In this document: piece after piece, positions 36,202-61,930 of the stretch
How the letters are laid out: each line of letters starts with the position of its first letter
How positions within the stretch are numbered: position 1 is the first letter of the stretch
From: Candidatus Multiplicimicrobium inquinatum
GTDB lineage: Bacteria > Omnitrophota > Omnitrophia > Omnitrophales > Aquincolibacteriaceae
Assembly (NCBI GenBank): GCA_002344825.1
Contig: DDUN01000038.1
Location: 21,061-85,060, forward strand
Direction of reading: 5' to 3'
DNA length: 64,000 nt
The notes under the pieces: generated by a model
The model's database searches: none
The model's input: only the letters and a program-made list of their open reading frames with translations
What the model was told of the DNA's origin: nothing
Position numbers and translations under genes: made by a program

Positions 36202-39200
36202 TTGATGGGACGGCATCAGCAGTTCTTAAAATTTGTGGCCACAGCTGTCATCATGTGTCTTTTGGCGCAGGATGCGGCGGTGGCATTGCCATCGCAGACT
36301 ACAGACTACAGACCACAGACCACAGACTCTGCGGAAACTCCCGGAGTTGAGGGATCGCATCTCCGGGAGTTGGGCTGGTTAAGCACAAAAAACCTTGGAA
36401 CGATTGATGAAGAGTTCCAAGGCACGAACGGTAAAAGCATTACCTTCATTCTCGATGCCCACGACTCTCTCGACGCGCAAAAGAATATTGTCCGAATTAT
36501 TCAACGGGCAACAGCCTCAGGCCGGGTTCGAACCGTCTTCGAAGAAGGTTATGAGGACGAGCTCAATACGGATGAATGGTTTGGCGATATCCAAGATGAT
36601 CAAATTCGCCGCAAAGTTGCTTACTATTATTTGGATCAACTTAAAATTGGCGCAGCAGAGTTTGCGCATATTAATCGGCAGAGCCGATTAGGACAAAGAA
36701 CAAAGGACAAAAAACAAAGCACCGATTGGCAATTAGTCGGCGCGGACGACAAACAAGCTTATCTTGAAAACGTGCGCGCTTTCGGTGACTCTGAAAAAGT
36801 CCGCGCGAAAATCCTGCGTGACACGCAAGCCATTCAGCGCGAACTGAAAGCTGTAGGCGCTAAGCAGCTTACGCCCGAAGCTCAAAAGTGGATTGCCGAT
36901 TATCAGCGCTTCCATGAGCATGCGCTTCCTCTGCTTGATTATTTAAATCGCTGGCTTAAATTTATTCCCCAAGAAGCTTGCCCGCTTTTACGCCGTATTT
37001 TGTCCGCCGCGCAAGATTTAGAACTTGCGCGCAGTATTCAACGGATCCGCGCCGCAGAAGTTTTAATTGAAATCAAACAATTCGAATCCTCACTGGAAGC
37101 GCATTTTTTTGAAGAAAGACAAACCGCCGAGATTTGGCAAGCACAGAAAACCATGGGTTCCGTTGAAAAATTGACTAATCTTAAAATTTCAAGTCATGAG
37201 CTGGATGAGCTTAAGCAGAATTTGAAAATGTGGGATACGGAAAGCCTTGCGCCCTTGCTTGCTCGCGCGAAGAAAAATCCTGTCGTGCTTTCCAAACGCT
37301 GGGAAACACTCATTCAAGACGCGCTGAAATTTTATGAGCTTGCGCATAAAAGAGATATGGCGGTGGAGAGAGCTCTTTTAAGTTGGAACAACTCCTCGGC
37401 TCCGCTCAGGGCAAGCGAACAAGAGCCAAAGGACAAAGAAGCGGTTTTGGTGTTCGGCGGTTTTCACCGCGAGGGAATTACCGAAATTTTGCGGCGCAAC
37501 GGATTTTCTTATACGGTTGTCATTCCTAAAATCACCGATTTTTCCAAGCGTCACCAATTGCTTTATCGCGAAGCTATGAGCGTTGGACCACGGGGCTCGG
37601 GCCACGGAGCCCGCCAAATGGTTCAAGCCGCGCGTCCGCTTTCAGGTTTTTATGATCACGGCTTTCGTTATGAAATTCCGCTTGTGGCGGCTCTCGCAAA
37701 AGAAAATCCAAAGCTAGATCAAAGAAGCTTTGCCTTGCTTGTCGAAAGAACACTTTTAGAAAAAAGTTCAACAACCGTGGCGCGTGGAGTTAATGGCGAG
37801 AATCTGAGCCGTCCCTCGGCTTCTCCCAACACGCGCCGCCTTTTGTTTTCAGCTCGCTCCGAATCTCGAAAAAAAGCAGAGAAGGTTCTCGATTATGAAG
37901 AAATTGATTTTGGGACTAAAAATCGTTTTTTAAAGAAAGCTTTGTCCACCTACTTAACTCCCAAGGTGTTTGAAACGGGCGGATTCATTTATAAATGGTT
38001 CGGGATCCAATATTTCATTTTTTTACTTAATCAATTTGACCGTCAAAAAATTCTACCGCGGTTACCCGTAAGCCTTTCCACCCCGCTTACGGATTCAAAG
38101 CCCGAAGAAGAAATTTCTGTCTCGGGACGAATCAAAATGGGATCTGCTTTAGAGATTATGCATCTCGCGGCATTTTTTATCATATTGGCTTTAGCCTCTA
38201 TGGAGCATTTAAGTGCAGATAATTTTGGAGCCACGTTATTGCATTTGGGAAATGTAATTGCAAATGTGTACCCCATTTTTGTTCAACGCTATGTTCGGGC
38301 AAGACTATGGCCTCGATATATTCAGATAAAAGAAAATGAAACCAACCGTTCCGAAGCCCGCGCGGGAACAGCCAAGAAGGAAACGGTGATTCGGAGCCCC
38401 GAAGTGCTGCGCCTTGCTTTGGGAAAATTCAATATTTTAAATTCCGGCGCACTGCATGAGTTGTTTTCTTCTCAACAAACAAGCCTGCAAAAGCTTACAA
38501 AAGCTGAGCGGGACCTTTTAAGGCGTATAGCGCTAATAAGAGACTCAACGAAAAAAGTTATGCGTAAAGAGAAGGGTGAGAATGAATTTCATGGGCCCTT
38601 TGCTCCTGCAAACGTGAGCCAGGTGATGACGGTTTTGAAGCATCTTGGAGCAAAACAGGGCGAAAAAATAATGGATCTGGGTCACGGCGAAGGGAGCGTG
38701 CTTTTTGGTGCGGCGGCGCTGTTTGGTCTTCAGGGTCTTGGCGGGGAGCTGAATTCCTATCTTTACAGGAAAAGTGCCGCGATTCAAGCGGAGCTGGTTG
38801 ATGCCGGGATTTTAGACGCGGGCGCCGTCGAGCTTAGAAAAGAAAACTTTAATCAGCTTGATCTTCGAACTGCTGATTATGTTTTCTTTTTTTCATTCGG
38901 AGGAAAAGTTGATCAGGAGAAGCTCTTGCGAGAGTTAAAGCCCGGCGCCAAATTCATTCTTTTGGGACTTAAAAACACCAATTGGGAGCAGGAGGAATTA
39001 ACCGGCTACTCTGATTTTTCAAAATTATTGGAAAACGGGCAGTTTGAACTTGTGCGATTTCCGGAACTGAGAACTTGGGTTTTCACAAAGCGGTCCGCGC
39101 GTTCCGAAATGCGCGAAGCAACTCGCGCGCAGATTTTGGAAATTTTAAGGAATTTCGAGCAGTTTCGTGAAAATATAAAAGTCAGCGAGCCTGTTGTGTG

Positions 39201-42200
39201 GGATTTAGAGGGGGTTGAATTAAACCGCGCACGGCCGCTGTTGGTGCTTCCTGATATTCATGGCGACCTGGAAGGCATGCTCGCCATGCTTTATTTCAGC
39301 GGCGTGATTGACCGCGAGGGCTTACCGACGGGCAGCGCGGATGTGATTCAGCTGGGAGATGTTATTAACGGGCGCGAGCAATGGTTTGAAGCGGATGATT
39401 ACCTGCGTTTTTTACAGCAAGAATTTGAGGAACGGGGACTTAGTCTGATTCGCCTGGCGGGCAACCACGACGTAAAAGTTTTGAAAGCCTTTGATCGCAA
39501 GAAATATTTTTTGGAATGGGTTTATGGCCCGTCCGAACGGCAGTTAAGCGGGTTGCGGGAATTTTTTCAGCAGTATTTATGGAAAAACCCGGGCAAACAA
39601 GGCCGGCAACTATTAAGAAAAAAGTTTACTTCCGTCGGTCTGCCGCTTCATATTTATTTTATTTTGGAAAAAGCGCGGGATTTTTATCAGGCAGTTAAAA
39701 ACGATATTCAAACCGGAAAAATCAAAGCGGCGGCAAGATTCGGCAATCTTTTTGTCACACATGCCGGATTGTCCCCGGCCGCGATGGAAGAGGAGTCCCT
39801 CGGTGCGGATTTTGATGAGAAAGCGGACGTTCTCAATCGGGCTTTTCAAGCATGGCTTTTAAAAGAAAGCAAGCCAAAGCAAGATGAGAGAACTGCAGAC
39901 GACGAAACAGTCGATGAACGCATCAAAATCATTCTGAAAAAAGCTCTCGGAATGAAAACAGCCGAAGGATTTAAAAAATCAAGCGTTTGGCAATTGACAG
40001 GGCATCGTCCTAAACGGCATAAACGCGTGAGCTCTGATGAGCGAATGATTTCCGCCGACTTTGATTTAGCGCGCCGCTTTGAAGTCTCCGAAGACGATCC
40101 TGTTTATCCGCGCATTTTATTTTTGAAGGAAAACCAGTTAATCGAGCAGGAAATTAAATTACCGCGCTTTGAAAGTCCGCCTTCGCCTGCAGATGACGGG
40201 GAAACATTGAAAGAAGAGTTTGTTGCCCGTTTTTCAACCGAAGAATTAAAAGAGTTTGAAATAAAGCCTGTCTCCCGAATTCGACTGATTAATTTGATTC
40301 AGGCCGCGATTAGCCAAAGCGGTGTATTAGAAAGCGCGTCCATCCAAAACGACTCCGTTTTTGTGAGAGTCATTGAGACAGCCGCCCACGGGGAAAGCAG
40401 CATTACGTTGCCCGCGCAAAATTATCATATTGGGGGGTATCATTCGACACTGGCAGAAGCTTATTTACAGCAAAACTATTTGGCGGGCGATGAGTTTTTG
40501 AACACGGTGCACGCGATTGAAGTTTGGCGCCGCTCCGAGGCGCGTTATTTGGAAGCGGAAAAAATTTACTTTGACAGCCCTGAATTTTTGAGCGCTACGC
40601 ATTATTTTAATGAAGCCGTCATTGTGCGAGACGAAGCCGGGACCATTCAGCCTATGGACTGGAACAAACTCATCACAATTTATGAAAGACTGCGGGGCGA
40701 TGATGTCAATGCCGAGTATACAGATGAAGATCGGCAGCTGAGGCTTTCGCATGAAAATGAGCCGTGGGCTCGGGAATGGCTTCAAAATATAAACCGGCAG
40801 GATTTAACTGGCGACGAAGCGCTTAATTTAGGAGTGAAAATCTACCGCGATAGCAGCGAAGGCGATGGCAGAAATCAGATGTTTGTAAAAAAAGCGGGCT
40901 TTGACCGGGTTCGCCCCCCCAAAAAAGCAGGAGCTTATTTTGAGCGGCACCCTGCCGATGGGCACCATGGTTTGGCTTGGTTTTTAATGAATTTTTTCTT
41001 GATGCGCAATGGATACGCTCCTTTTTATTTTAAGAATGAGAAAGAGTATTTGAAAATTCCGATCGACTATTACAACCGTGATGAAGGCGCGGCTCGTTTG
41101 CGTCAGCTTCTCCGCGAAAGAGTTTTTTCAGAAAACAAAGGCAACCGTTCCGAAGCGCGGACAAGCGATGAAATCGGGCTCCAACAAATTAAAAATACGG
41201 AAATTGCTTTGACGCCGCGCGCGTTTCACGGCCGAAATTGGCTTCGCTATCCGTGGATGACCACAAGAAAAAAAGTTTGGGAAGTTTTCGGGCTGCCCGA
41301 CCCGCGCGATGCAAAACCGGCGCAGCAAAAAACATCGCGCGACATCACCTTTATTAAACGCAAAAGTGACCGTCATCCGGTTTGGGTGATTTTAGAAAAA
41401 GACAAAGTCCGCTTCGAAGAAAAATTTGCAAGAGAATTACTTATGCTGCGCGGCAAAGCCCGTTCCGAATCTCGAAACGACCCCAAAAAACAGGCGGCGG
41501 AGTTTTCAAAAAAAGCGAATGCCATTATCAAAGCACGGGGCAATTTAGAAGAAGCCGCGCGGCTGGCGGAAGAAGCCATCGAACTTGATTATACAAATGC
41601 ATTTGCGCATGTGGCGCTTATTCAGGCGCGGCGGGGGCTGGGTCAGTATAAAGACGCGCTTGAAGCATTTATCTCAGCAGAGCGGGATATTCCCGATAAC
41701 CAATACGTGCGCGCAATGTTTCCGGGTATTTTAAATTCTTTCGCGGCTCAATCAGCGGAGCAAAATCGGCTTGATGATGCCATAGACACTTTCCGAAAAA
41801 TTTTTCCGGATACGCCGGAAGAACTTCAAGAAAGCGTTAAGTTAACGGCTATGCGGGCGCGTGAAGCCTTAGCGTATCAAGCCATTGAAAGAGGCGATTT
41901 TGGAAAAGCGCTTCAAATAGCCGAGCAAATCAATCAGATTTTACCTAGCAATCAAACAACAGATCTTATTTTAGCGACAGCATTTATTCATCAAGGCCAG
42001 CCCGGGCGCGCAGAAGCACAGCTTGATTTCTCGCGCAGAAAATTTTTAGCGCGGAATCCCCGAAGTTATTTAATTAAAGCTTTGAGCGCGGCACATAAAC
42101 TTCGGCCGAATGAAGCGAAGGCAATATTAAATGAAGCTCAAGACGTATTTTCAGCTGAGAAAAGCATTGTGGGGGTGATTCAAAAGCACTCGAAGCTGAT

Positions 42201-45200
42201 TGAAGCCGGCGCGGATGTTGGCGAATTACTTAATCAAGTAAATCGAGATCCCGTGCTTGCTGCGCGCGAAGAAAGAATTATTGCCGGAGTTTCTCGCTCC
42301 GAATCGCGCCGGCGCTCTCAAGATGAGGGAGAAAAAATTTTAAAACTCCATACGCTTTATATGGATGTGATGCGCAGAAAAGCAAATGCGTGGAAAGATG
42401 GAGCTGAAAAAGTAGAAAGCGCGGGTTTTTTAGTTACGGACGTTGGCTATTATCCGATTGATACGGACAACGAATTCGAACACTTGCTGGCGATTTTCCC
42501 CAAAATTCGTGATAAGACAAATTTTAATCAACCCCTTCGCTTTCTTGATTTAGGATCAGGCGCCGGCAAGCTTTTGATACAAGTGCTAATGCTGGACGCC
42601 CATCTTAATGGAGTTGGCATCGAATATGATCAGGCGCTTTATGAAGTTTCTTTAGACCTCGCTGAAGAAGCCGCAAAACAAAAACTTATTTCTCGTGAGC
42701 GCGCGCATTTTTTAAAAGGGGACTTTTCTGTCCCTGAATTTGAAAAAGAAATTTCTTCCGCGGACGTTCTTTTTCATTATCAGGCAAGCTCATTTGACCC
42801 CGCGCTGCTTGAACAAGCATTGATTCGCTCGATGCGCCCAGGAGCCAAGCTTTTAGTATACGGGTCATCTCGTGATTATTTCCCAAAACTATCGGCGCGC
42901 GCTGGTTTTGAACGGGCGTTTGATGAGACAGCGCGAGTGACAACTTATAAAAGAAATTTCATGCCGCGCGAGCCCATCTCTTATCAAGATACAGCCGTTG
43001 TTTTTGTGCATACCGCGGGCATGGGGGATCACTCACTGCCTTTGGCGCTGGATAACCGGCGTGTGATTAAAGATGCCGTGAAAGCCATGCAAAATTTAGG
43101 CGGCAAAGAACTTGAATTTTATATTGACGGTCATCCGAGCTATTTGCCGCCGCGACCCGATCGCATTCGTTCCCGACAAGAAAACACAGCCGCGCTGACT
43201 TCGCCCTTTAGCTACGATTTTGATCCTGTCCGCAATCTGCGAAGATTTGTTATGGCTGGGGGAGAGTGTGAAGCTTGTTTTCAAGCCGCGCTCACTTCGC
43301 TATTGGAAGAAAGCAGCGGGCAAGCAGCACCGAAAGAAATCCATTTAGCCGCGGATGCTGTGTACCAAGTTGTTCCGGTCCCAGATGAAGATGATCTTCG
43401 CGGAGTGCTCCATGAATCAAAAGCTGTTTCCAGCGAGCAGGTTTTTGACATGGCAGCCAAAACGTTGGCTCGAAACAGATTTACTTCGATCGGCAAAATT
43501 TCTCGAGCTGAAAACTTTTTGACCCAAGGCACATTCTCAGAAAGCTCCCAGGTTGTTGTTTGGGACAATTATCGTGAAATGATTGATTGGATTCGTGCCG
43601 ATCAAAAGAGATCTGAGGCGAGAGCCAATTTCAAAGCTGTTTGGAAAAGTGCGACAACCGCGGATGGCCAAATGCGGATGGCTTTGGGCTTGTTGCGCCG
43701 TGTCGAGCAATCACGAAAAACGCGCGGCTTAGATCTTCCGGACAAGCTAACTGAAATTTTAAAAAATGCGGATGAAATCGGCGTCGGACCGCATGCGCAG
43801 CTGAACAATACCATTGCTCTTTTGCGTATTTTAGGAATTCACGTCGCTTTTAAATTGATCCCCGGCCTTGGAACGGTAGGCGCGGCGGGATTGGGGATGA
43901 TGGCGCTGAGTGGGCCTTGGTTTTTTGCGGGCCTTTCTCTTTTTATGCTGCAGGGTTTTTTGCGCGCGGCAACCACCGCGTGGTTCTTAACGGGAACGCA
44001 ATTGCCCGCAAAAACAGGGCTGGCTTTTCTATCGGCAATTCCGGCGCTCGGAATTTTGGCGGTTCCGGTTTATATGCTTGCTTTAAAAGATCAGCGCGGG
44101 CTGGGTTTCGCTATTTTAGATTACTTTTGGAATTCCGCTTGGGACAAACTTCTTTTTCCATCATTGATGGCTTTAGGAGCGGGACTTTTTTGGGTATTGC
44201 GTTGGGGAGTGAATCTGGGAGTCTTTGCTTTAATAACAGCGGCTTCTGTTATTTTTTTTACTGGGTCAAAATACATGGAATGGCGTGATCAGGGACGGAC
44301 TGTCTTGCAAAAAACAGTTGAAGCTGTTTCGGTGATAGGCGCGCTTGCCGGCTTTGGGGCAACGATCTTCTATTTTGGATTTTTCAGTCTGGCGACACTT
44401 TTTGTTTTTACCGCAATGGCTGTTCTTTTTAAGGGACTGCAAATATTTTTTGATTTTCGAGAGCGGCTTTTCCGTAAATCTTTGAGAGAGCCCGGCTCGC
44501 CCGCAGCGGCTGAGAAAAAAGAGGGCGATTTTAAAAACCGCTCAGAAGAGCGAAGCGCATTAGAGATTTTTGATGAAGCGGCGGACAATTTATTAGCTTA
44601 TCCAAAAGCGCTTCTTCATTCACGCGGCTTAGAGCCCTATCTGGATGCGTTCGACCGCGAGCATTATGCCTGGGATGAAACGCATCAGCATTGGGCGTCG
44701 AAAGACTTTCATCCGACGATTACGGGCGCGAAGCGGCTTATTTTAGGGTCTTGGGAAGATATTCGGCGCGCCTCGCCTGGTGAACACGCGCGCATGAAAA
44801 ATTTTGTCGCCATTCGTTTAAACACAACAGAAGGAGCGCGCAGTTTTTATGCTTTTGATGACCACGGCTGGTCGCTTCAGGCTTATGCCGAGGCGCATTG
44901 GCGCGGAGAAATTCCGGCGCTCGGCAACACACAGATATTTATAGACAAGCACGGTGATGATCGAAAAGTACGTGACGGGCAATATTACGCGGAAAGGTTT
45001 ACCGCGATACTCCGTCAGGATGCCGGAACGAACAATAATATCGAATTTGATATGGGCGGTTTTAATAACACGCTTTGGTCTTCGGGGTTTATTCCGAAAG
45101 AAAATCATCATCGATATCATGCCCGCATGAGCTGGCTCAAGGAAATGATGATCGGTTTTCCAAACAATCGGGCTGTTTTGCTGAATGTCGATACGGACGT

Positions 45201-48200
45201 GACAGAGTTTATCGTGGGTGATTGGGGGAACGAAATGCCGCTTGGTTTGGGAGAAGAGGATTTTGAGTCGCTTGCCGTTGATTTAACCAATTTACGCGAT
45301 CAATACGGCTTGACTCCGCTTACGGCGCATTTCACCACAACGCATTTTGAAAATGAAAATTTGGCAGATTTTTCTTTGCATTCAAACCGCATTCAATACG
45401 GCGACACCGAGCTTGCGCGTTTTCTTGCCCGCATCGCTCCGTTTATTTATTTTGTGAAAGATCAGCCCGTCGAATTGCGCGATCAGGCGATTGCGCAAGC
45501 GGCGCAAGAACATGCCGCGCAATGGAAGCAGGATTTTGGCGCTAAATTTAACCGTTCCGAAATGCGGGCGGAAATCATTTTTCCCGATGCGCAAAAAGTG
45601 AAAGATGTTTTTGAGAAAGCGGAGGGATCCGCGGTGCTTTCAGAGGAAGACCTTGAAACTGCTGTTCAACAAGCTGTGGCGGAAAGCCGTGCGTGGCTTG
45701 CCGACCGTGTTAAACAAGAAACGCCCGAAAGCGAAAGACGGGCCATCGCGCTTCAGGCCGCTGAAGAAAAAATTGACGAAAGAACTTTGTATTTAGAGCC
45801 CGAGCATTGCGGTCAGCAATGCGGTTTTTCTTCGGGGGATGTCAGAGACAGACTGTATTCTCTTTTGGGGGCGAAGGTCAAAATTCGGCGTATTCAGGCT
45901 AAAGATGGCTTTGGTGTTGCGCAAAGCCAAAAACACCTTCTAACACTTATATCGTTGCCGGACAAATCCAAAATTTTCCTTATAGATTTAACTTTCGCGC
46001 AGTTTATGGATCGAAAGAACAGCCCCTCTCCTTACATTGGGATGCAATTAAAAAGCAATGCGCCCGATCAGCTGAATACGCTTTTACGCCGCGGCTATGT
46101 CGATTTAACCGAGAACAAAGACTTTTTAACGCAATACGCTCAATCTTTTCTATCTGAGGCGGAGGATGATGACGCGCATTATCCTTTAGAGCATTTTCCC
46201 GCTGAGTATATTGCTGATCACACCGATTTGATTTCACAGCCCATGAGTGATTTTATAAATATTCCGGCAACCGCCGAAGAGAATTTCAAAAAATCTTTGG
46301 AAGAGCGCGGAACAAAATTTCTCATTTTAGCAAAAGAGCGGCGTGAAAGAATTTGGAGGGGATTTTTAAGCTTTTACCGGAATAGCGCAGGGCAGCAAAG
46401 CAATTTAAAAACAGAGGATGGCCGGTTTTTTGAATTTAGCGCGCGCTCCGAAATGCGGAATGATGAAGTGGGCAACCCTTTTTTCGTAATGGTTCACGGG
46501 GAATCGCGATATTGGCAAAAATTAGAAAGCGAGGGTTATTTTTCAGAAGAAGACAGGTCTTTGATCTTTGACGCCGTGGATGGATTAATTCGTCCCGATG
46601 CTTCAATTTTAGATTTAATGTCAGGCAGAAAAATTAGCTTTTCAAAAAAGCAGCGAAATATCACCGCCCTTGGATTGACGGAAGCTATTCTGCGCCAAAA
46701 TAAAATCGACGGAAAGATCGATAATTTTGATGTGCAGGACCTAAACCGTAACTCTCAACTACCTTACGCTGATAAAGCATTTGATAGCGTGGTGATTTCT
46801 TTTGGCATCATGTATCTGACGCAGCCGGCGGAGGTTTTGAAGGAAGTGCGCCGTATTTTGAAGCCGGGGGGCAACTTGATCGTGATTTACGCCGAAGATT
46901 CCTGGGCAAGTTCTTCCGCGGTTGCTTTATGGAACCAACCAGGATTATTCCGCTATCGGGGAAGCCGTATTTATGGGCCGCCGTTTCTTTCGGATGATCA
47001 CCAGGAATTCAGTCAATTTTATGGCCAAAGCGATGTTTTAAACTTTTATCTGCGCGGCGCAGGCTTTGAAATTACGGAGCGAAAAAGAGTTTTTGGAAAA
47101 AAAGACACGCGGGTTGTTGGTTCTGAAATGTTTGCTGAGATGGAAACGCAGAATATTTACCAAATTGTTTCTTCCGGCTCGTCCGCGCGATCTGAAGCGC
47201 GGCTGGATGAGTTGCTGGATAAAAACCGCCGCAATGCGGATGAATGGAAAGAAACGATTCGTCTTATTAAAGCCACTTTGCCCTTGGCCGAGGAAGTGAC
47301 CCCTAGGATGATTGTTGAAGCACCGGCGGCAAAAGGAAAATTGCGTTATCAGACTTTAGTTATGGCGGTTCATCAAACCGGAGGAGATTATGCGAGCTTT
47401 GGACTTGATGCGGAGGAAAAAAACTCAATTTCTGAAAAAGAAACCAAAATCAAAGCGGCAGCTCGAGCTCTTCTAGCCGAAAAGAAAAGCCCAAGTCCTG
47501 AGGCCGTTTTGAGTTATCTTCAAAAACCAGCACATTTCTTTAAAGGGTTAGATGAAGGCGCGCTAAAAAAGTTAGGGCTTGTTTTTCCTGAAAAGAAAAA
47601 GACGGCGGATGAAAAATACATGCCTATTTTAGAAGCGCTTGTCCAAGCAGGAGAAAAATTCGAAACGGTTCGTGAGATTGCTATCGCGGCCGCAGGCGTT
47701 CCTGAGAGCTACGTGAAAGAGCTTGGCGCACCTAAGCTTACTGCTATGGGACTTCTCACAGGGGGAACAAACCCATATGAAAAACTTTCGCAAAGATTTC
47801 GAGTTGCTCGCCAAGCTAAAATTAATGCAGCGCAGGCTAGAAAAACCCCCGTACGAACAATTGCCGAGCTGTCTGAAAGCACAGGTATTCCAGCCACAAC
47901 TTTAGCGAAATATACCGCGCAGCAGTTAGAAGAGCTTGGTTACATTCCGCGCCCCGTCAAGCTTGAGCGCGCGGTAAAAGCTTTGCTAGTTGAAAATCCC
48001 GGGCAAATTATTTCTTATGAAGTATTGGCTCAGAAAATAACTGAAATGGGCCTTGAAGATCTGAAGCCAGAGCAGCTGCGCGAATGGAATGCTTATCAAA
48101 AGCCGCCTTTTACCGCACAGCCCGGCTGGAGGAAGCGTTTCGAGCCGATCATGAAAGCCGTTGAAGTACTTGGAACGAATGATAGCGAATTAGACTTATT

Positions 48201-52701: not shown

Positions 52702-52737
52702 GCGCGCTCTTTCAGCCAAATTTTTTTAGGGAGTTTT

Positions 52738-53835: not shown

Positions 53836-54109
53836 AGCAAAGGCAAAGAGTTAAAGCTTGGCATGTAAGTCCTGAGACCTTCGATATTGCTCAGGGTAAA
53901 CCAGTCGAAGAGCGATGTTGTTTCCTTCTGCTTTTTAGTTTTCCTACCCACCGCGGGAGCAAGTTAGCGCGTATTTTAAATATAACTATTAAGATCAATT
54001 CTAATCAAATTTGACTAATAGTATAGTTGCCTCACCAACTTATTTGTTTTTTTTTACCACTTAATGTAATCTTTGCAAACTAATTTAGATTTTAAAAAGG
54101 AGAGAATGA

Positions 54110-57100
54110 ATGAAATTTAATATGCGCAAAATTTTTACCAATATTTTCATTCTTATCTTCCTAATTAACTCCGTCTTCCCCGCCCAAGCCCAATTTGTAA
54201 GGACAGAGCCAAAAGCTAAAACTTTCAGCGGAGTTGCTTTTCAAGCTATTTCTGTGCCCGAAAGTTTGGCTTTTAAGGATAAGAGCTTCCGCGGCAAAAA
54301 ACGCGAAGCGCTTTGGATTTTAAATGATGCCCATGCGGTTCCTTCCGCGCAGGAATCGATTTCACAAACGTTGCAGTATTTACAAAAAGAGGCCGGACTC
54401 AATTTTGTGGGAGTTGAAGGCGCGACAGGTTATTTTGAAACCACGCTTTTGCGTGCTTTTCCTGATTCTGAAAAACTGGAACAAAGCGTACGTGAGCTTT
54501 GGGGAAAAGGGGAAATTTCAGGCGCGACTTTGGCGGCTCTCACGAGCGGAAAGCATGCGCGTTATTTTGGAGTTGAAACATCCGGACTTTATGAACAAGG
54601 GTTAAGAAATTATTTTACCGCGAAGAAAACAGCGCCGGCGCATCAAGAAAAACTTAACGCAATACAGGCTCAAATAAGAGAGCTCAAGCAAAAATTATTT
54701 TCGAAGGAGCTGCGGCGATTTGACGATTTGCGCTTGGAGATGAAAACAAACTCTGCGCAAAGCTTGCCTCTCATTTTAGATTTGGCTTCGCGCGAGATCG
54801 CTGATGATATCAGCCAAAATTTTCAGCATCTTTTTGCGCTTGCCCAAGAGCTGAAAGGGAAACACGAAGTTTCATCCGAGGCTTTGTCGGTGTGGAGCCG
54901 CGAAATCGGGCTTAAGATTAAATCTCAAGCGGAACAGAAAAAATGGTCTGAAAAAGAGCAGGCGTGGCAAACCGGGAATTTTTCGGACGCCCAGTTCGCG
55001 GCTTTTGCGTTTCAGTTTTGCCGAGAGCAAGGCTGGGCTCCGCGAATTCCGGAAGAATTACAAGTTTTGGCCCGACGCGGTGAAACTCTTGCGCGCATGC
55101 GATCCAAAGTTTTTGTCCGGGAGTGGGAGCAGCTCCTGGTTCGGCTTGAAGTGGCTTTTGCAAAAAACCAGATAGAACGAGACCTAATGGTTTTAACGCA
55201 TCAAGCTGAACTTTTAAGCGACTGGCTTCGTTTAGAGCTTTCAAGTGAGGGTTGGAAACGGGCCGTAAAGCCATTCTCTTTTGTTTCCGACTCAAAAATG
55301 AAATTGCTTTCCGCGGACTTAGAAAGTCTGCGCCAACAGCTGGCGGCGTCCGATCTCGCCCGCTTTTATGAAAATGCTGAAGCGCGGGAAAAAGATTTGA
55401 TTGAAAACACACTGAAGCAAATGCGCCGTGAAGGACAAACAACCGGAGTTTTAATTGCGGGCGGTTTTCATACGGAAGGTTTAGCAAACAAGCTCGAGCA
55501 GCGGGATATTTCGTATTCGGTTTTAACGCCAGCCATCGCGGAGCTTCCTGCTGAGAGCCGCTACGATGCGCTTATGCACGGCGATGTCTCGTGGAAAAAT
55601 TACTTGCGCGCCGAGAACAAACAAATTCAGCTGTATGAATCTTTCGCGCGCGCTATGACGCATCAGCTGCTGGATTTGGAAAAACAACAAAAAGACCCGA
55701 TACGCATTCTCGCAAATTATAAAGCTTGGCGTGAACATTTAATTCGCGGTATTCACGCGGCTGACGCGAAAAGGAATTTACAAGCGCTGGCGCTTTTGGA
55801 TGAAATTGTTCTCGAGGCTATTTATCCGGATGAATACGCGCCGCTTAAACAAAACTGGAAAAAAACTTTTTCTAAAATATGGCCTGTTTTAACGAGACTT
55901 AAAAAAATCGGAAAACTTAGCGCGCCCTCTGCCGGCCCGGCGTTCTCCGGAGCGACAGCGATGTTTGCTTTGGGCAATCCCTTGGTGCCGGAGGCTCCTG
56001 TTATTGCGATGCCTGGGGTGGAAGCGCCCACCACTTCTCCCGCGGTATTCCCAAGCGAAACCACCGCGCCGACTTTGCCGCGATCCGAAATGCGTGTGAT
56101 GTCGCCGTTGATGGCACATATAAAAGAAGGCACAACGGATTTATTTTTTGTTCACGCCGCCGTTTCTTCTTTGTTAGACAAGCTGACCGAACGGCATGAA
56201 ACGGAACCCGTTTCTTTCGAAAATATTCGCGATCATTATCGTTGGAAATATTCAGAGCGATATAAGCGCCTCACCGAAAAAGGATTTGTGCCCGCTTTGG
56301 GTCTTCAAATGGAGCTTGCCGATGAACTTTTAAGCAACGCTCTTAATGCTCTTTCCGAAGGCGAGGCGAGCCTTTTTATAAAAAATGAAAAGGGATATTT
56401 TCCGCGCAATCCGCGGGCTTTGGCAATTAAAGGAGACCACGCGGCTTATATTCGCCGTGATTTGATCCGAGCGATTGAAGTCGGCGGCAATGGTTTTAAA
56501 ACGGTTATTCAGGATTATGTGCGGAACGCGAATGAAAGTGAATTTTTGAATCCCATCGAGGGGAAGTGGCCGATTCTTAAGGCTGTGTTGCTTTTAGAAA
56601 AAAGACAAAGAGAAAAACTGCTTCGCTTGCTTTTGGAAGAGAAGACCTTCACCAATCTGCCGCTTGTGCAATCTATGATTCTTATGCTGCAAGCCGATGA
56701 TTCCCTCGGCTGGCTTCGTCAGCAGATAATTGAGAGCATTCAAAAAAAGCAAGGGGCTGTTTCTGTTCCGACAAAAAATAAAAATTTAAAGATATTCGCG
56801 TTTGTTTCAAAAAACAGTGTTCGTTTTGTTTTGATTAAAAACGCTTCCGGAAAAATTATTGATACGGGCGTAGAAAATCTTGGAATGGCGGATCAGGGAG
56901 TTGTTTTAGCTGATTTGTTCAGAGGGGGATTAAAACTTGAAGACGTTAACGTGCTTGAAGTTCGTAATGCGGTTACCAATGCGTTTTACAGCGCCTATGC
57001 CGTCAGCGGTATGATCCGCAACGGGCTCTCGGTTTTTATTCCCGCAGAAACAAATGAAGAGTGGCAGGTTTTGGATTTCGTCCATCGATCCGAGACGCGG

Positions 57101-60100
57101 CTAAGAAAAGAAAACGGATTTGTGAACGTGAAAGATTTTCCGTTTCTTTCAAATCATACGGTTTATAGCCGTCAATTTGAGGCCGGTTTGCCGCGGCATT
57201 TGCTTGAAAAAATCGAAAGCGCGGCCTTAACAGGAGAAGATCAGCTGGTCAAAGAATTTGGGATTTCGAAAGAACTTGCGGCCGCGCTTGTTGCGCAAGT
57301 TAATTTAACCGGCGGGCTGGGCGCGTTAATGCCGGATTTATTCGAAGCCTGGGAAGCGAATGCCATGCCGGTGACAGGCATTCATCCGCTTTGGAATTGG
57401 ATCAAGAACCGCCCTGAAAAAGCTCTGGGCAAGGATGGCAGCCGGCTTCCGCTTGGGAATATGGTAAAGCAGCACATGGAAGATACGGGAATTCATTTCG
57501 AAGTCGCCCTTCCGATCACACAGCGGTATCGTTCTTACGCTCAAAATAGCCGCGCGCGCGAGCTTTTAACCGCGGCCGGGCATAAGCAAATTTTTGTGCG
57601 CATTTATAAGACATACTCTCATTTTCAAAATGCGCCCCAATACTATCTCGATTCGTATTACGTTGAAAACGGCAAAGAGGTTCCGGTTTTCGGCGAAGTT
57701 TATGACGATGACAATGCTCTGCGAGATTTTCATATGGCTGTTTTTAGCCAGGCCAGCCAAACGCTGATTCAAAAACTTGAAGGTAAGGGTGACCCTGAAG
57801 ACATTGTTTTATTGGATCACGAGGTGTTTACGAGCATTCCCGCAGCGCGTCTTAACAGCGCCAAGCTCGCAACTTTGAACCACACGGTTTTTCGTCCGGG
57901 GTTGTATGAGCCCTCTGAGAGCTCGTATGAATTATTGGGTTTCCCGGAATGGCTGCGAGGCACGATTGCGCATGACGGCAAAATCAGTATCGCGGATTAC
58001 ACGGCCGAAGCTTATGACCTCTTGACGGGCGTTGGTTTGGTGGAGCATGTCCCGGCATTGCATACCAATATTTTCCGCTGGGGCTGGCAGAAGCTGCGCG
58101 GATTTTTTGACGGCAAGCGGCGCAGTACCAATGGGGTTTATCTCCCGCGCTGGCAATCGCATCCGCGTCGTAAGCTGATAGAAGATTATAAAAAGAGGCT
58201 TAATATTCCAGTGCCAAAATTCGGGTTGCCCGTTGAAGCCTCCGACCATGATTTTTTTATTGAGCTTGATAAGAAAAAAAATGCGGCGCTAAAAAAAGAC
58301 TTTATTTTAAAAAATGAAGCGGTGGGCGCTTCCGATGCCGCCGAGCTTTTGATTTGGCTTTATGAAAAGCACGGCTTCGAATGGCTTAAGGACTCTTTGG
58401 GCGCGTTTATCGAAAAAGGAAATGTCGCAAATTTAATCGCGGACCTCAACGGAATGCGCGCAAATTTGAATGACATGATCGGAAAAGAGGCATCAGCTGA
58501 CAAACAGTGGGAGGCCTTTTTTAGACAGCGCGGAAAACTTATTCATGCCTTGCTTCAAGATCCGATCGGAGCGAATGTCCGGCGCCAGGTCCCTTATAAA
58601 GGACCGGATAAATATGTGGAAGTTTTAAACAGCTTTTTGACGTTGGCGAAAGCTCAAACCGGAAAGAGCTTTGATCAGGGGGCTCTTTTTCAAAGAATCA
58701 AAGGGCAGGTTGAAAAAGGCGACTTTGGCGATCCTGAATTTCAGGATTTGCGGGCGGCGCTTAAAAACTCGGCAATTAGTCAGGAAATACGTGAGCAAAT
58801 GGCGCGCGTGATTATTGGCGGGCGTACTTTTGACATGGGCGCGCATGAGCGCTTTTTGTATATCCGCTTTATGGCGAATTTGCTTGGTCTTGAAAGCCGG
58901 TTTGCTACGGTTGAAAATTATAATTATCACGAGGCGCGATTAATTTTTAAAGGCGCGCAAGCCGGCATTATGCTTTCGGATGAAATTTTGGAAGCTTCTG
59001 CCACCAGTATGGAAAAAGCGCAAACCAATATGGCCGAGGTGATCGGTGTTTTTGGCGGAGCGGTTCCTGAAATTTGGATCATTCGCAGTACGCAAACGGG
59101 TGAAATCAAAGAGGTTTTAGACAAAGATAGTGATCCCGCGATGACGCATAATGAACTGCGGGAAAAACTTAAAAGCGGGGAGTGGGAGATTTTGAATGGT
59201 ATTTTGGTGGAATACCAGGATGGTTCCAGGAGTGAACAAATCGGCGGGTTGCGCAGGCCTTCCGCGGCCAGCTTGGTGGCGGCGCTGAAACAATTGCGCG
59301 CGTCACGCGGCAACCCCGAAACCCGTCATCAACGCATGTATGACACTTTGGCCTCGTCGTGGAAAGTAGACATGGTTACAAGCCAGGCTCAGGCCCACGC
59401 GTATTTACTGGAGGGCATGCTTAAAATCAAAGCAGATCAAAAAGCATTGCTTGGGAAAACAAAAGCCGCAGATGAAGATTTTAAGCACATCGCTTCCGCC
59501 GGAGTTTTTAACTGGAATGTTCAGCGCGAAAATCTGCATCCTTTTTATCGTGGCGGCATGCTTGGTTTTGTGAGCGCTTTCCGCTGGTTAAAAAGCTGGC
59601 AAAAACCGCATCAAAATTCATCGGACGGCATGGCTTCACGGGGCGAAGACGCGCTGGCGGCGATTCAATTTCACGCGGCAAACGGGGATGTTTTTGAATA
59701 CTTGCTCAAGAATCTTGCGCCGCTTTCGGGCGGCGTCGAGCCTTTGCGCGAGCGTATTCGAGTTTTGCAGGAGCAGGCAAAAAAAGCGGAGAAAGAACGT
59801 GTGCGCGTCGCGTTAAATCTCGAAGCGCTCGAGCTTGTGGATCAGTTTTTTGTAAAAACGGCCGGCGAATGGCTGGAAGAATATGTTGCGGATACAACAT
59901 CGCCGGAAAGACGGCAAGCTTTGCGTGAAGTTTTAGAAAAATCCGCTTTTGTGGAAGAGCATAAAAACAAACCGCAACAGCCATGGGCGGAATATATCGC
60001 GCGTTATCTGGATCATCATCCTTTGGCAACCCCGCTTGAAACTTCCGATACTCGTGTGCGCTCCTTTGTTTTTGCAAAATCAGATCAGCCGATTTTAATT

Positions 60101-61930
60101 AACCTGAGTGTGAACGCGGCATCTTCCGAAGAAAAGGATGCGGCCGGAAAAACCATCCGCAAAGCGCGCGCGACGGTTTATTTGAATGAGTCAGCCGCAA
60201 AGATTTTGGGCGGCGAAAGCTTTGGAAAGCAGGAGCTTTATCGTGTGACAGAGCCGGCACGGGAAATTGATTATAAATTGCATACCGCGGTGGAACTGCA
60301 AGATGCTTTGGGAGTTGGAATTCCGATGCCGCTTGGCGTTGAGGTTTTGGCTTGGCGCCCCGCGCAGGCTGAGCTTGCGGGTGTTTTTCAGCGCGCTTTT
60401 CAGGCAAAAAGTTTTTCTGATGCCGTGAACACGCTTTCGCAGCGCGTTCAGGACGCGGCTAGCTCGCATACCGCCGATGATTTCTCGAGGTTCTCAGCGA
60501 ACGGGGAAGCGAAGGAGGCTTTTTTAAGAGAGTTAGCAGATTTAGCGAGTCTTGATCCCCGCTCCGCCGAGCACCTTTTTACGCAAGACGGGCGCAAAGC
60601 CGTGATGGCCTTTATTTTAATGACGCATCCTGAACTTTTAGATTCCGTCAAGCAATGGCATCGTGATTTTTACGCAAAGCTACAAATTTTGCGCTCGGAA
60701 AACCCGGATTTTTTTAATAGCCGCTCGTCTGTGCGCGTGATTAACTCATCCCGCAACGGGACTTTGGTGTTAGCGCGCCAAGACGGGAATGGAAATTTAT
60801 TGTTTGCTTCGCTGCTTTTCTATGTGAGCCAACGGGAGATTAACTTTGACGGCAAAGTAAACACAACTTTAAGCGGCTTGGAAGGACTGCTTGTCAGATC
60901 ACCTTATAAGATTACGGATGGGCTTACCAGACAGATTTATGGAGAGCGTTCCGATTTGCTTAGCTCCTGGGTCAACCGCATTCCGTTTAATGACCGCTCT
61001 CAGTTTTTGATTCTCGAGCCGGTCAAGCGATCTGAGTTCCGCGGTTTAGCGGAATCGCAGCAACGTTCCGAAGTCGTAACTGAAGGACGCATGGAGGCAA
61101 AAGGGGAAAGTTTCTTGGTTGCCGCGATTAGATTTATGGGTTTTGCTTTTAACCCGGGCCGGGCCGCGTGGGCGGAAGAAGTTTTGCACCCTGTTTACGC
61201 CGCGGGAATTTTGGCGAGAACGCATCCTGAACATTTTGTTCCGGCTTTAATTTTGTCTTCAAACGGAGAGTGGATGACGCCTCATCAAGAAAACCGTTCT
61301 GAAGCGAGGCTTTGGGATCAGCTGGGGGCGTTTGCTTCTAAGCATTTTGAAGCGCATCCGAATACACCGCTTCATTTAGGATTTACGGTTCTTTATGATG
61401 AATCGCTGGATGAAATGTTATTGGCGTACGCTGAAAAAATAAATATGCTTCAAAAAGAGAACGATCGGGGATCGCTCATTAAGAATCGTTTGACAGTCTT
61501 TTTGGCGCCGAATCAAAAGATGTCCGAAAATTTTTCTCGGCAGGCGCCAAAACTTGGAATTGTTTCGAAGCAGCTCAGCGCCGGTAAAGAAGCGGCGCAA
61601 ATCGTTTCTTTTTTGAAAACGGAATCCGCGCGATCTGTTTTTGCTTATGGGTTTGAAGCCTTTAATCTTTCGGATCAGGAGTTGGGCGGTTTGCGCCCGC
61701 TCATTGTGGTCAGCGCTTTTTCACCCGAAGCCACTTTTAATCCTGCGGTTATGTTGAATTTGGCCACGGCTTCAGAGGGAAGCATTACCGCCGACGTGAT
61801 TCAACGGGTGTTTGTCGGGTATCAGCAATTTGTTCGTTTAACCAACGGATCACTTGCTTTGTTGGAAAATATTTTGAAAGACAAACTCCTCGAGCTTCAG
61901 GTAAAACAGCTTATTTCCTCGATGGCGTAA
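54110..61930 (+). CDS. Giant multidomain protein, 2606 aa. It has a signal peptide, an N-domain paralogous to the 36202 giant, and a central GT35 alpha-glucan phosphorylase-like region. It also carries R-S-E-x-R motifs.
   Basis: AAAGGAGAG RBS. The signal peptide is MKFNMRKIFTNIFILIFLINSVFPAQAQ. N-domain motifs are ILNDAHAVPSAQESI…VGVEGATGYFE and LIAGGFHTEGLANKLEQRDISYSVLTPAI (compare ILDAHDSLDAQKNI…FEEGYE and VFGGFHREGITEILRRNGFSYTVVIPKI in giant 1). GT35-like motifs appear in order: IVLLDHEVFTSIPAARL, ATLNHTVFRPGLYEP, VPALHTNIF, STNGVYLPRWQ, EILEASATSMEK, GVFGGAVPEI. Confidence 0.75.
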   Translation: MKFNMRKIFTNIFILIFLINSVFPAQAQFVRTEPKAKTFSGVAFQAISVPESLAFKDKSFRGKKREALWILNDAHAVPSAQESISQTLQYLQKEAGLNFVGVEGATGYFETTLLRAFPDSEKLEQSVRELWGKGEISGATLAALTSGKHARYFGVETSGLYEQGLRNYFTAKKTAPAHQEKLNAIQAQIRELKQKLFSKELRRFDDLRLEMKTNSAQSLPLILDLASREIADDISQNFQHLFALAQELKGKHEVSSEALSVWSREIGLKIKSQAEQKKWSEKEQAWQTGNFSDAQFAAFAFQFCREQGWAPRIPEELQVLARRGETLARMRSKVFVREWEQLLVRLEVAFAKNQIERDLMVLTHQAELLSDWLRLELSSEGWKRAVKPFSFVSDSKMKLLSADLESLRQQLAASDLARFYENAEAREKDLIENTLKQMRREGQTTGVLIAGGFHTEGLANKLEQRDISYSVLTPAIAELPAESRYDALMHGDVSWKNYLRAENKQIQLYESFARAMTHQLLDLEKQQKDPIRILANYKAWREHLIRGIHAADAKRNLQALALLDEIVLEAIYPDEYAPLKQNWKKTFSKIWPVLTRLKKIGKLSAPSAGPAFSGATAMFALGNPLVPEAPVIAMPGVEAPTTSPAVFPSETTAPTLPRSEMRVMSPLMAHIKEGTTDLFFVHAAVSSLLDKLTERHETEPVSFENIRDHYRWKYSERYKRLTEKGFVPALGLQMELADELLSNALNALSEGEASLFIKNEKGYFPRNPRALAIKGDHAAYIRRDLIRAIEVGGNGFKTVIQDYVRNANESEFLNPIEGKWPILKAVLLLEKRQREKLLRLLLEEKTFTNLPLVQSMILMLQADDSLGWLRQQIIESIQKKQGAVSVPTKNKNLKIFAFVSKNSVRFVLIKNASGKIIDTGVENLGMADQGVVLADLFRGGLKLEDVNVLEVRNAVTNAFYSAYAVSGMIRNGLSVFIPAETNEEWQVLDFVHRSETRLRKENGFVNVKDFPFLSNHTVYSRQFEAGLPRHLLEKIESAALTGEDQLVKEFGISKELAAALVAQVNLTGGLGALMPDLFEAWEANAMPVTGIHPLWNWIKNRPEKALGKDGSRLPLGNMVKQHMEDTGIHFEVALPITQRYRSYAQNSRARELLTAAGHKQIFVRIYKTYSHFQNAPQYYLDSYYVENGKEVPVFGEVYDDDNALRDFHMAVFSQASQTLIQKLEGKGDPEDIVLLDHEVFTSIPAARLNSAKLATLNHTVFRPGLYEPSESSYELLGFPEWLRGTIAHDGKISIADYTAEAYDLLTGVGLVEHVPALHTNIFRWGWQKLRGFFDGKRRSTNGVYLPRWQSHPRRKLIEDYKKRLNIPVPKFGLPVEASDHDFFIELDKKKNAALKKDFILKNEAVGASDAAELLIWLYEKHGFEWLKDSLGAFIEKGNVANLIADLNGMRANLNDMIGKEASADKQWEAFFRQRGKLIHALLQDPIGANVRRQVPYKGPDKYVEVLNSFLTLAKAQTGKSFDQGALFQRIKGQVEKGDFGDPEFQDLRAALKNSAISQEIREQMARVIIGGRTFDMGAHERFLYIRFMANLLGLESRFATVENYNYHEARLIFKGAQAGIMLSDEILEASATSMEKAQTNMAEVIGVFGGAVPEIWIIRSTQTGEIKEVLDKDSDPAMTHNELREKLKSGEWEILNGILVEYQDGSRSEQIGGLRRPSAASLVAALKQLRASRGNPETRHQRMYDTLASSWKVDMVTSQAQAHAYLLEGMLKIKADQKALLGKTKAADEDFKHIASAGVFNWNVQRENLHPFYRGGMLGFVSAFRWLKSWQKPHQNSSDGMASRGEDALAAIQFHAANGDVFEYLLKNLAPLSGGVEPLRERIRVLQEQAKKAEKERVRVALNLEALELVDQFFVKTAGEWLEEYVADTTSPERRQALREVLEKSAFVEEHKNKPQQPWAEYIARYLDHHPLATPLETSDTRVRSFVFAKSDQPILINLSVNAASSEEKDAAGKTIRKARATVYLNESAAKILGGESFGKQELYRVTEPAREIDYKLHTAVELQDALGVGIPMPLGVEVLAWRPAQAELAGVFQRAFQAKSFSDAVNTLSQRVQDAASSHTADDFSRFSANGEAKEAFLRELADLASLDPRSAEHLFTQDGRKAVMAFILMTHPELLDSVKQWHRDFYAKLQILRSENPDFFNSRSSVRVINSSRNGTLVLARQDGNGNLLFASLLFYVSQREINFDGKVNTTLSGLEGLLVRSPYKITDGLTRQIYGERSDLLSSWVNRIPFNDRSQFLILEPVKRSEFRGLAESQQRSEVVTEGRMEAKGESFLVAAIRFMGFAFNPGRAAWAEEVLHPVYAAGILARTHPEHFVPALILSSNGEWMTPHQENRSEARLWDQLGAFASKHFEAHPNTPLHLGFTVLYDESLDEMLLAYAEKINMLQKENDRGSLIKNRLTVFLAPNQKMSENFSRQAPKLGIVSKQLSAGKEAAQIVSFLKTESARSVFAYGFEAFNLSDQELGGLRPLIVVSAFSPEATFNPAVMLNLATASEGSITADVIQRVFVGYQQFVRLTNGSLALLENILKDKLLELQVKQLISSMA

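Follow-up and report, generated by a model that had tools for sequence, protein, structure and literature searches.

Two giant proteins encoded in a 64,000-nt stretch of the Candidatus Multiplicimicrobium inquinatum genome (contig DDUN01000038.1, positions 21,061 to 85,060; this whole stretch is referred to as the window, and position numbers count from its first letter) carry a recurrent pentapeptide, RSExR, at the junctions between their modules. In the broader form R-[SA]-E-hydrophobic-R, the same motif marks a large family of giant Omnitrophota proteins. On balance, we favour the reading that these giants are exported polyproteins and that the pentapeptide serves as the recognition site of a dedicated endopeptidase, which would free each cassette. 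The motif would then be the first concrete candidate for the cut sites of giant proteins. It appears to be previously unreported: a full-text search for the motif strings returned only an unrelated motif of PL7 alginate lyases, and the portions of the Omnitrophota giant-protein papers reached by term searches mention neither a recurrent motif nor a cleavage point.

A strict pentapeptide in giant Omnitrophota proteins

Scanning the 64 kb in six frames, we find RSE.R in frame 15 times in giant 1 and four times in giant 2, against composition-based expectations of 0.16 and 0.05, respectively; the five other matches in the window all lie in non-coding frames, at background level. An earlier sequence-only reading of this DNA had reported the same copies, with all quoted peptides correct and coordinates within 10 nt, and had judged them to be far beyond chance, which is borne out by 19 sites against ~0.2 expected from composition. 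It had also named a comparable RSExR density in unrelated proteins as a sign of compositional bias, and the flanking genes turn out to be nearly free of the motif. A single relaxed match (RAEAR in YidC) occurs in 32.8 kilo-amino acids (kaa) of non-giant open reading frames (ORFs) from the window and four related loci. Another 145 kaa of upstream flanks contain 23 matches, 22 of them in large or truncated ORFs, which are evidently adjacent giants, as in the window. Exclusivity to the giants was assessed on ~180 kaa of flanking genes in this way. The low expectation, the motif-poor neighbouring genes and the background level in the other frames rule out a compositional artefact.

The sequence-only reading had described a feature of two genes, whereas the motif actually characterises a very large protein family of Omnitrophota. 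With giant 1 as the query, 93 proteins of 2.7-7.8 kaa were retrieved, and every one with a named source comes from Candidatus Omnitrophota. A profile of the shared domain, run against one genome per GTDB species, yielded 80 loci, with 3-5 paralogues in several genomes; all loci with a named taxon belong to Omnitrophota except one labelled 'uncultured Planctomycetales'. The giant family is Omnitrophota-specific. Searching 1.84 billion representatives with a profile of the N-terminal domain (N-domain) gave 8,996 proteins at E≤1e-3 and 4,856 at E≤1e-30, and among the best 150 of the 8,996 matches the domain begins at most ~110 residues from the N-terminus. The sole region common to all 93 homologues corresponds to amino acids (aa) ~40-500 of giant 1, of which giant 2 has a divergent copy. 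Family members are built from a signal-peptide-like N-terminus, this N-domain of ~450 aa, variable cargo and a conserved C-terminal domain (C-domain), with the first motif behind the N-domain in nearly all of them and the last motif ahead of the C-domain.

The 93 homologues contain 644 RSExR sites in 401 kaa, where ~10 are expected; 74 GTDB loci contain 415 sites in 200 kaa and 98 further representatives contain 414 sites in 207 kaa. A set of 1,387 unique R-[SA]-E-[LMVAIST]-R sites in 265 giants corresponds to ~2 per 1000 aa, with a median motif-to-motif spacing of 320 aa. The second position is Ser at 585 and Ala at 142 of 727 sites, and one giant (P0052) uses Ala exclusively, all of its 15 copies reading RAEVR. 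Leu (171), Met (138), Val (124), Ala (103), Ile (49), Ser (26) and Thr (26) lead the tally at the fourth position, x. When each position is substituted in turn, Lys for either motif Arg never rises above background, and Asp never stands in for Glu. The 20 residues on each side of the motif hold essentially zero information; the flanks of the 1,387 sites show an excess of Pro, Ser, Thr, Ala and Gly and a deficit of Tyr, Trp, Ile, Phe and Cys. Directly behind the second Arg, Thr, Ser, Asn or Ala is preferred and aromatic residues are almost never found.

One lineage carries a different motif at the same places. P0055 (6918 aa) lacks R[SA]ExR and carries 16 copies of [STA]-G-F-G-[AVTH], the first at aa 504, just past the N-domain, and the last 192 aa from the C-terminus. 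In this protein, whose full length is known, the GFG copies occupy the architectural positions held by R[SA]ExR elsewhere. A locus in a groundwater Omnitrophota genome (L084) has 10 copies of GFGA and likewise no R[SA]ExR, and as its N-domain is 79% identical to that of P0055, we consider the two a single lineage. An unrelated motif at the same positions is expected if a protease and its sites co-evolve and is hard to square with a structural role.

Modules and cassettes between the motifs

Giant 1 is laid out as a signal-peptide-like N-terminus, the conserved N-domain, 15 motif-delimited modules and the C-domain; giant 2 shares this architecture. The bracketing of domains by motifs that the sequence-only reading had described stands for the CrtO-like, TPR, two DOT1-like, class I methyltransferase and transmembrane-cluster modules of giant 1 (Table 1). 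Its PPP (aa 967-1444) and Fic-like (aa 1444-1649) modules could not be recovered, as neither gives a Pfam detection at E≤0.1. Module 1444-1649 has two tandem homologues in P0004 (51% identity), both of which are motif-bounded.

In giant 1 and five homologues, none of 50 motifs falls within a Pfam envelope, compared with 9.4 expected, and many of them sit 10-45 aa beyond an envelope edge. Two-domain enzymes are left undivided by the motif, such as GT5+GT1 in P0029 and transglycosylase+transpeptidase in P0009. In an AlphaFold model covering aa 25-575 of giant 1, the core reaches a predicted local distance difference test (pLDDT) score of ~90 and the segment with the first motif stays below 50. 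Module 3415-3663 has its closest homologues among stand-alone methyltransferases of 192-220 aa. Projected onto giant 1, the N-termini of 13/15 of these proteins fall at aa 3414-3420, on the motif at 3415-3419, and their C-termini lie 3-40 aa ahead of the next motif. Junction-delimited segments correspond to whole, self-standing proteins. Transmembrane-like segments also start preferentially behind a junction, 30 within 40 aa after a motif and 5 within 40 aa before one, a sixfold difference.

Homology blocks within the cargo, i.e., with the terminal domains excluded, contain 31 motifs, compared with 100.6±8.5 under random placement, and 17 of these 31 align with a motif of the partner protein. 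The blocks that giant 1 has in common with its closest relatives, P0002 and P0003, run from the first residue of one motif to the next motif in both proteins and occur in permuted order: giant 1 position 2470 corresponds to P0002 position 1179, 2764-3123 to 2407-2762, 3118 to 900, 3639-4298 to 3943-4602 and 5024 to 3040. It follows that the unit of evolution is the segment between two motifs, a cassette. The gene order corA-rlmN-(554/566-aa gene)-giant-ychF-hexapeptide transferase is syntenic across genomes (window 31790-53835 compared with locus L003), and the giant at L003, P0009, has cargo entirely unlike that of giant 1, namely PP2C, a penicillin-binding protein (PBP) transglycosylase/transpeptidase and methyltransferases. 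Different cargo at a fixed chromosomal site points to rapid cassette turnover.

Across the family, the cargo includes methyltransferases, radical S-adenosylmethionine (SAM) enzymes, epimerases, ROK and PfkB kinases, Nudix and HD hydrolases, glycosyltransferases, transketolase, PBP-type transglycosylase/transpeptidase and membrane modules, and many distinct Pfam families, none of them dominant, tile one polypeptide. The PBP-like module of P0009 (aa 4725-5713, with the transglycosylase at 5086-5253 and the transpeptidase at 5342-5621) is flanked by transmembrane-like segments at 4800-4959 before and 5674 after the enzyme domains; it looks as if the chain recrosses the membrane to its starting side ahead of the next junction.

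Most family N-termini resemble Sec signals, with a basic stretch, a hydrophobic stretch and an AxA-like site; signal peptides and transmembrane segments were called from sequence and a hydropathy scan alone. A Tat signal was considered and rejected, as RR followed by hydrophobic residues occurs in just 2/94 N-termini and giant 1 has RHQQFLK rather than S/T-R-R-x-F-L-K. Cysteine is scarce, with six residues in the 5487 aa of giant 1, four of which form CxxC and CxxxC pairs (aa 2356/2359 and 3203/3207), and one in the 2606 aa of giant 2. At 0.09%, compared with 0.74% in 20 neighbouring genes, it is ~8-fold depleted in the giants. Scarce cysteine is a trait of proteins that are translocated unfolded. 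Together, the signal-peptide-like N-terminus and the cysteine depletion suggest that the giants are exported.

Terminal domains and the proposed role of the motif

The N-domain is predicted to adopt an alpha/beta fold with a central parallel sheet as in ChaN, Ere, TraB and RRSP. Fold comparison matched it to ChaN (2g5g, score 9.3), EreA-like proteins (2qgm and 2rad, 8.9), the erythromycin esterase EreC (6xcq, 8.7), the MARTX Ras/Rap1-specific endopeptidase RRSP (5w6l, 8.6), HopBA1 (5t09, 8.4) and a TraB-family protein (8bqs_DQ, 7.9). The modelled fold is that of the TIKI superfamily. The family alignment shows DAH, EEG, AEYAH and GGFH to be invariant and sited behind beta-strands, and the domain contains a large helical insertion of ~230 residues. 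Giant 1 aa 1-560 gives no Pfam match at E≤0.01, including to PF01963, PF04187 and PF05139, and a comparison of the N-domain profile with PDB sequences returned nothing relevant. As no Pfam family of the superfamily matches, we regard the N-domain as a new, divergent family within the TIKI fold. Neither terminal-domain family came up in the portions of the Omnitrophota giant-protein papers that our searches reached, none of which asked for these families by name. By crude pattern match, the putative catalytic motifs look intact in 216/219 N-domains, too uniform a set to reveal co-variation with the presence of the pentapeptide, and the other three proteins still bear 8-21 motifs each. In RRSP, the 2His/2Glu centre of this fold carries out site-specific proteolysis (PMC6254334).

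At the other end, most members have a C-domain of ~200 aa, and nearly all terminate in hydrophobic-x-[AS]-x-[AS]-A. The last eight codons lie at 52639-52662 in giant 1 (VFAASA) and at 61904-61927 in giant 2 (LISSMA). These endings resemble the non-polar C-terminal tails that PDZ-domain tail-specific proteases or ClpX read. Two other places for a protease were considered and rejected. The C-domain shows just a weak similarity to HAD-like Rossmannoid proteins and has no invariant polar residues. No conserved neighbouring protease gene was found; the 554-aa gene upstream of giant 1 is kept only in positional orthologues and its sequence lacks protease hallmarks.

In order to account for these observations, we propose that the giants are secreted, cysteine-poor polyproteins carrying strings of complete enzymes or membrane proteins, in which the pentapeptide sits in a flexible linker after the N-domain, between cassettes and ahead of the C-domain. 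A dedicated, lineage-encoded endopeptidase would recognise the motif and set the cassettes free as separate proteins. The scissile bond most likely follows the second Arg, because the residue behind it is small and almost never aromatic. As for the protease, the TIKI-like N-domain is an obvious candidate; since it is near-identical in RSExR and GFG giants, a trans-acting enzyme is about equally likely. We infer cleavage, scissile bond and protease identity alike, and the polyprotein processing suggested by the sequence-only reading is partly supported, with much indirect support from the strict family-wide motif, the complete modules, the permuted blocks, the GFG swap and the fold of the N-domain. 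The released proteins may act in or on another cell, which would fit the predatory or parasitic lifestyle that passages of PMC10066038 propose for Omnitrophota. A more far-reaching version, which we put forward only tentatively, is phylum-wide self-processing of thousands of secreted giants by their TIKI-like N-domain at R[SA]E-hydrophobic-R or, in one lineage, GFG, with sets of complete enzymes and membrane proteins released, possibly inside or onto prey or host cells, and with the codon-biased 15-nt joint doubling as a microhomology for shuffling cassettes between paralogues.

Several observations weigh against processing of exported giants and against the N-domain as the enzyme. Giants 1 and 2 have no Pfam peptidase domain, C80 included, and the TIKI superfamily also includes esterases, heme-binding proteins and non-enzymes. 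Between GFG-type and RSExR-type N-domains just four conserved columns differ, all conservatively, with two of the changes (F->Y and A->S) adjoining an invariant Arg; so nearly unchanged a domain argues against the N-domain setting site specificity. In the AlphaFold model, the first motif is undocked from the N-domain, and both modelled motifs are drawn as low- to moderate-confidence helices, a picture that fits a protease substrate and a binding helix equally well. The absence of motifs from folded cores, a check raised by the sequence-only reading, holds for the 50 motifs set against Pfam envelopes and fails in the C-domain, as 24/115 C-domains (e.g., those of P0012, P0029 and P0017, not that of giant 1) bear an NRSELRLV(I/V)-like copy in a predicted beta-strand, so that not every motif lies in a linker. 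This copy, the only recurrent one in a folded region, might act as a pseudo-substrate or be what the motif evolved from. Finally, many cargo enzymes need cytoplasmic SAM, adenosine triphosphate or iron-sulphur clusters, which would be awkward for exported proteins unless they act in another cell.

Part of this evidence would equally suit a linear docking motif that is never cleaved, one per cassette, bound by a chaperone, a translocon or secretion adaptor, or a scaffold while the giant stays intact. Short strict motifs in unconserved flexible flanks are typical of linear binding motifs, the two modelled helices resemble conditionally folded binding segments, some C-domains embed a copy and no protease was pinned down in the analysis. 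We nevertheless consider docking rather unlikely, since the modules are complete stand-alone proteins with the motif exactly at their N-terminal edge and a wholly different motif, GFG, can occupy the same positions. Moreover, the motif parts the N- and C-domains from the cargo even where there is one undivided cargo (P0089), and the periplasmic PBP-like module that P0009 carries between transmembrane segments, beside cytoplasmic-type enzymes, is hard to reconcile with a single chain.

An improbable alternative is that the peptide is the mere translation of a nucleic-acid signal, a joint of ~15 nt acting as a recombination microhomology or an RNA processing site. It draws on the reshuffled cassette order of close relatives, in which breakpoints coincide exactly with the motif, and on the codons of the motif. 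Measured on 488 sites from ~79 genes, these codons show a reproducible synonymous bias towards the consensus CGY-TCC-GAR-NNG-CGG, in which the two Arg positions favour opposite third bases. Compared with the background, the first Arg is CGY in 77% of motif codons (background 40%), Ser is TCC in 50% (22%) and AGY in 4% (32%), Ala at the second position is GCC in 49% (31%) and the last Arg is CGG in 38% (25%). At x, the third base is G or A whichever amino acid is encoded, with GTG for Val in 59% (29%), GCG for Ala in 66% (35%), ACG for Thr in 62% (35%) and ATA for Ile in 40% (10%). In the window, Ser is TCC in 13/19 copies, compared with 16% in the rest of the genes (p = 3e-7). The sequence-only reading, right in placing the conservation at the peptide level with varying codons, had overlooked this clear preference. 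Yet the motif uses every one of the six Arg codons, both Glu codons and four to six Ser codons (TCN, rarely AGY), its third positions hold 0.2-0.5 bit only, and the flanking DNA is without information, which argues for selection on the peptide and excludes a DNA repeat. The rules of the motif also follow amino-acid logic (Ser or Ala, no Lys, no Asp, a hydrophobic x from unrelated codons), the matches in other frames or strands of the window stay at background, and the GFG lineage keeps the architecture with an unrelated sequence. The codon bias might reflect a need to decode critical residues accurately, or a DNA joint promoting the recombination of cassettes. Because Met, Val, Leu and Ile occur at x and the N-termini of homologues project there, we also considered x as a relic or internal start codon; this was rejected, as the G or A third base extends to Ala GCG and Thr ACG, neither of which is a start codon.

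Still less credit is due to a purely structural linker, e.g., a salt-bridged helical cap between domains without a recognition partner. The R-x-E-x-R spacing could give intra-helical salt bridges and the motif is predicted helical at low confidence, but such a cap would tolerate Lys for Arg and Asp for Glu, neither of which the motif allows. Neither register nor length is conserved around the motif, GFG substitutes for it in one lineage, and it is absent from the other multidomain proteins examined in these genomes. A post-translational modification site regulating each module (Ser phosphorylation, or modification of Arg or Glu), also suggested by the sequence-only reading, would suit a short, strict and exposed motif in giants that carry methyltransferase, kinase and phosphatase modules, and is the least credible of these explanations: Ala replaces Ser at ~20% of sites and exclusively in proteins such as P0052, which makes the serine no essential acceptor and excludes serine phosphorylation, and the GFG variant has no modifiable side chain.

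Known systems and genomic context

We rate the giants as probable processed modular polyproteins or effector carriers with a new junction motif and new terminal domains. In function, their nearest parallels are MARTX toxins and viral polyproteins. MARTX toxins of Vibrio and relatives are likewise very large secreted proteins with conserved ends, variable recombining effectors and flexible linkers cut by an internal protease, where cleavage of the giants is predicted. As in MARTX toxins, only the N- and C-domains are common to the giants, the cassettes between them being permuted across relatives, and the MARTX effector RRSP shares the fold of the giants' N-domain. However, the RTX repeats and the C80 protease of MARTX toxins have no counterpart in giants 1 and 2, which give no repeat or RTX match in Pfam. 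The giants end in TIKI-like and Rossmannoid domains and have a Sec-type N-terminus in place of the C-terminal type I secretion signal of MARTX; their cargo consists largely of metabolic-type enzymes and the family is restricted to Omnitrophota. Cleavage of MARTX linkers occurs after Leu and involves no strict pentapeptide.

Viral polyproteins (flavivirus NS2B-NS3 and picornavirus 3C sites) similarly encode several complete proteins in one ORF, with a short junction motif in a flexible context that varies by lineage, and the small residue behind the motif of the giants resembles a P1' preference. The giants differ in being a chromosomal bacterial family with several paralogues per genome, cassette shuffling and conserved terminal domains, and in lacking a recognisable viral-type protease. 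In multi-core precursors of ribosomally synthesised and post-translationally modified peptides, such as the cyanobactin precursor PatE, repeated short protease recognition sequences flank variable cassettes; these are peptides of 6-20 aa, compared with whole folded enzymes of 100-1500 aa in the giants. The conserved region R(S/T)E(L/V)R of PL7 alginate lyases is one active-site strand in a beta-jelly-roll, and as the giants have no PL7 domain and the PL7 motif is single and inside the fold, its likeness to RSExR is coincidental.

Other giants from this phylum (Archaeovorins, Dockerin-type; West-Roberts 2023; preprint 10.64898/2026.06.07.730766) resemble ours in having many unrelated enzyme domains per polypeptide. 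The authors likewise suspect processing, for which they put forward C39 or subtilisin domains, and deal with proteins of at least 10 kaa; West-Roberts et al. 2023 state that the cleavage points are unknown, and the accessible portions of the literature searched report no cleavage products of Omnitrophota giants. At 5.5 and 2.6 kaa (family 2.7-7.8 kaa), our giants lie below the length of at least 10 kaa of the set analysed in the preprint, and they share with its class 1, the 'multi-enzyme metabolic clusters', the tiling by many Pfam families with none dominant.

Giant genes are a hallmark of Omnitrophota and other ultra-small, host-dependent bacteria, and it is an acknowledged question whether their products work as a single chain or are divided, one to which the junction motif supplies exact coordinates. 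The motif predicts the mature products of thousands of proteins, lets giants be split rationally for structure prediction and annotation, and defines neo-termini for proteomics as well as a five-residue substrate and a candidate protease domain for biochemistry. If our reading is true, the giants would be to cells and chromosomes what polyprotein expression is to viruses, and would represent a new modular system of effector or enzyme delivery, and a protease with so strict a site could serve as a tool.

The window covers the bacterial chromosome around the replication origin, with yidC, dnaA, dnaN, gyrB, gyrA and serS, and further contains genes for a quinol nitric oxide reductase, pgm, an ABC transporter, corA and rlmN. 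The housekeeping GTPase gene ychF separates giant 1 from giant 2. Coordinates of the giants, their domains and all motif copies are collected in Table 1.

Table 1 Features of the two giant genes in the window (nt positions; aa numbering within each giant)
Feature	Position	Strand	Remarks
Giant 1	36202..52665	+	5487 aa from listed TTG; 15 motifs
Giant 1 signal-peptide-like segment MGRHQQFLKFVATAVIMCLLAQDAAVALPS	36205..36291	+	Read from sequence
Giant 1 conserved N-domain	36346..37701	+	TIKI/ChaN/EreA/RRSP-like fold; family alignment, fold comparison
Giant 1 motif 1 RSESR, aa 552	37855..37869	+	Directly behind N-domain; segment with pLDDT<50
CrtO-like membrane acyltransferase module, aa 584-702	37951..38307	+	Pfam; inside motif-bounded module 552-716
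Giant 1 motif 2 RSEAR, aa 716	38347..38361	+	
Weak DOT1-like methyltransferase match, aa 804-921	38611..38964	+	E 2.9e-4, under Pfam cut-off
Giant 1 motif 3 RSEMR, aa 967	39100..39114	+	
Giant 1 motif 4 RSEAR, aa 1444	40531..40545	+	
Giant 1 motif 5 RSEAR, aa 1649	41146..41160	+	
Giant 1 motif 6 RSESR, aa 1754	41461..41475	+	
TPR repeats, aa 1894-1942	41881..42027	+	Pfam
Giant 1 motif 7 RSESR, aa 2032	42295..42309	+	
DOT1-like methyltransferase, aa 2100-2218	42499..42855	+	E 3e-11
Giant 1 motif 8 RSEAR, aa 2470	43609..43623	+	Exact start of P0002 and P0003 homology blocks
Five clustered transmembrane-like segments, aa ~2538-2750	43813..44451	+	Within module 2470-2780
Giant 1 motif 9 RSEER, aa 2780	44539..44553	+	Only copy whose x (Glu) is neither hydrophobic nor small
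Giant 1 motif 10 RSEMR, aa 3118	45553..45567	+	Block boundary in P0002 and P0003
Giant 1 motif 11 RSEMR, aa 3415	46444..46458	+	Stand-alone methyltransferase N-termini project here
Class I SAM methyltransferase, aa 3457-3625	46570..47076	+	Pfam; stand-alone homologues
Giant 1 motif 12 RSEAR, aa 3663	47188..47202	+	
Giant 1 motif 13 RSETR, aa 4302	49105..49119	+	
Giant 1 motif 14 RSEMR, aa 5025	51274..51288	+	
Giant 1 motif 15 RSEAR, aa 5218	51853..51867	+	
Giant 1 C-terminal alpha/beta domain, aa ~5337-5487	52210..52662	+	End ...WQVFAASA
Giant 2	54110..61930	+	2606 aa; architecture as giant 1, N-domain divergent
Giant 2 signal-peptide-like N-terminus MKFNMRKIFTNIFILIFLINSVFPAQAQ	54110..54193	+	Read from sequence
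Giant 2 N-domain	54248..55747	+	25% identity to P0092 and P0093; DAH and GGFH retained
Giant 2 motif 1 RSEMR, aa 658	56081..56095	+	Shortly after N-domain
Giant 2 motif 2 RSETR, aa 993	57086..57100	+	
Giant 2 motif 3 RSEFR, aa 2307	61028..61042	+	Phe at x, rare family-wide
Giant 2 motif 4 RSEAR, aa 2396	61295..61309	+	210 aa from C-terminus, the usual last-motif position
Giant 2 C-domain	61403..61927	+	End ...QLISSMA

The database twin of giant 1 (P0001, 99% identical) begins one codon later, at ATG 36205 (MGRHQQ...), which is more likely to be the start of giant 1 than TTG 36202. Divergently transcribed from giant 1 is the gene for a 554-aa secreted protein (34370-36034, minus strand) without Pfam match, whose repeated W-Q motifs look to be of the beta-propeller kind. 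This gene is kept at the same position in seven syntenic loci (L003, L006, L007, L008, L025, L059 and L074). Farther upstream, 16503-18647 and 19231-21504 (plus strand) encode two coiled-coil-type proteins (714 and 757 aa; rich in Glu, Ala, Lys, Leu and Gln) without a Pfam match, and it is to these that their stretch owes its strong AT skew (0.22-0.31).

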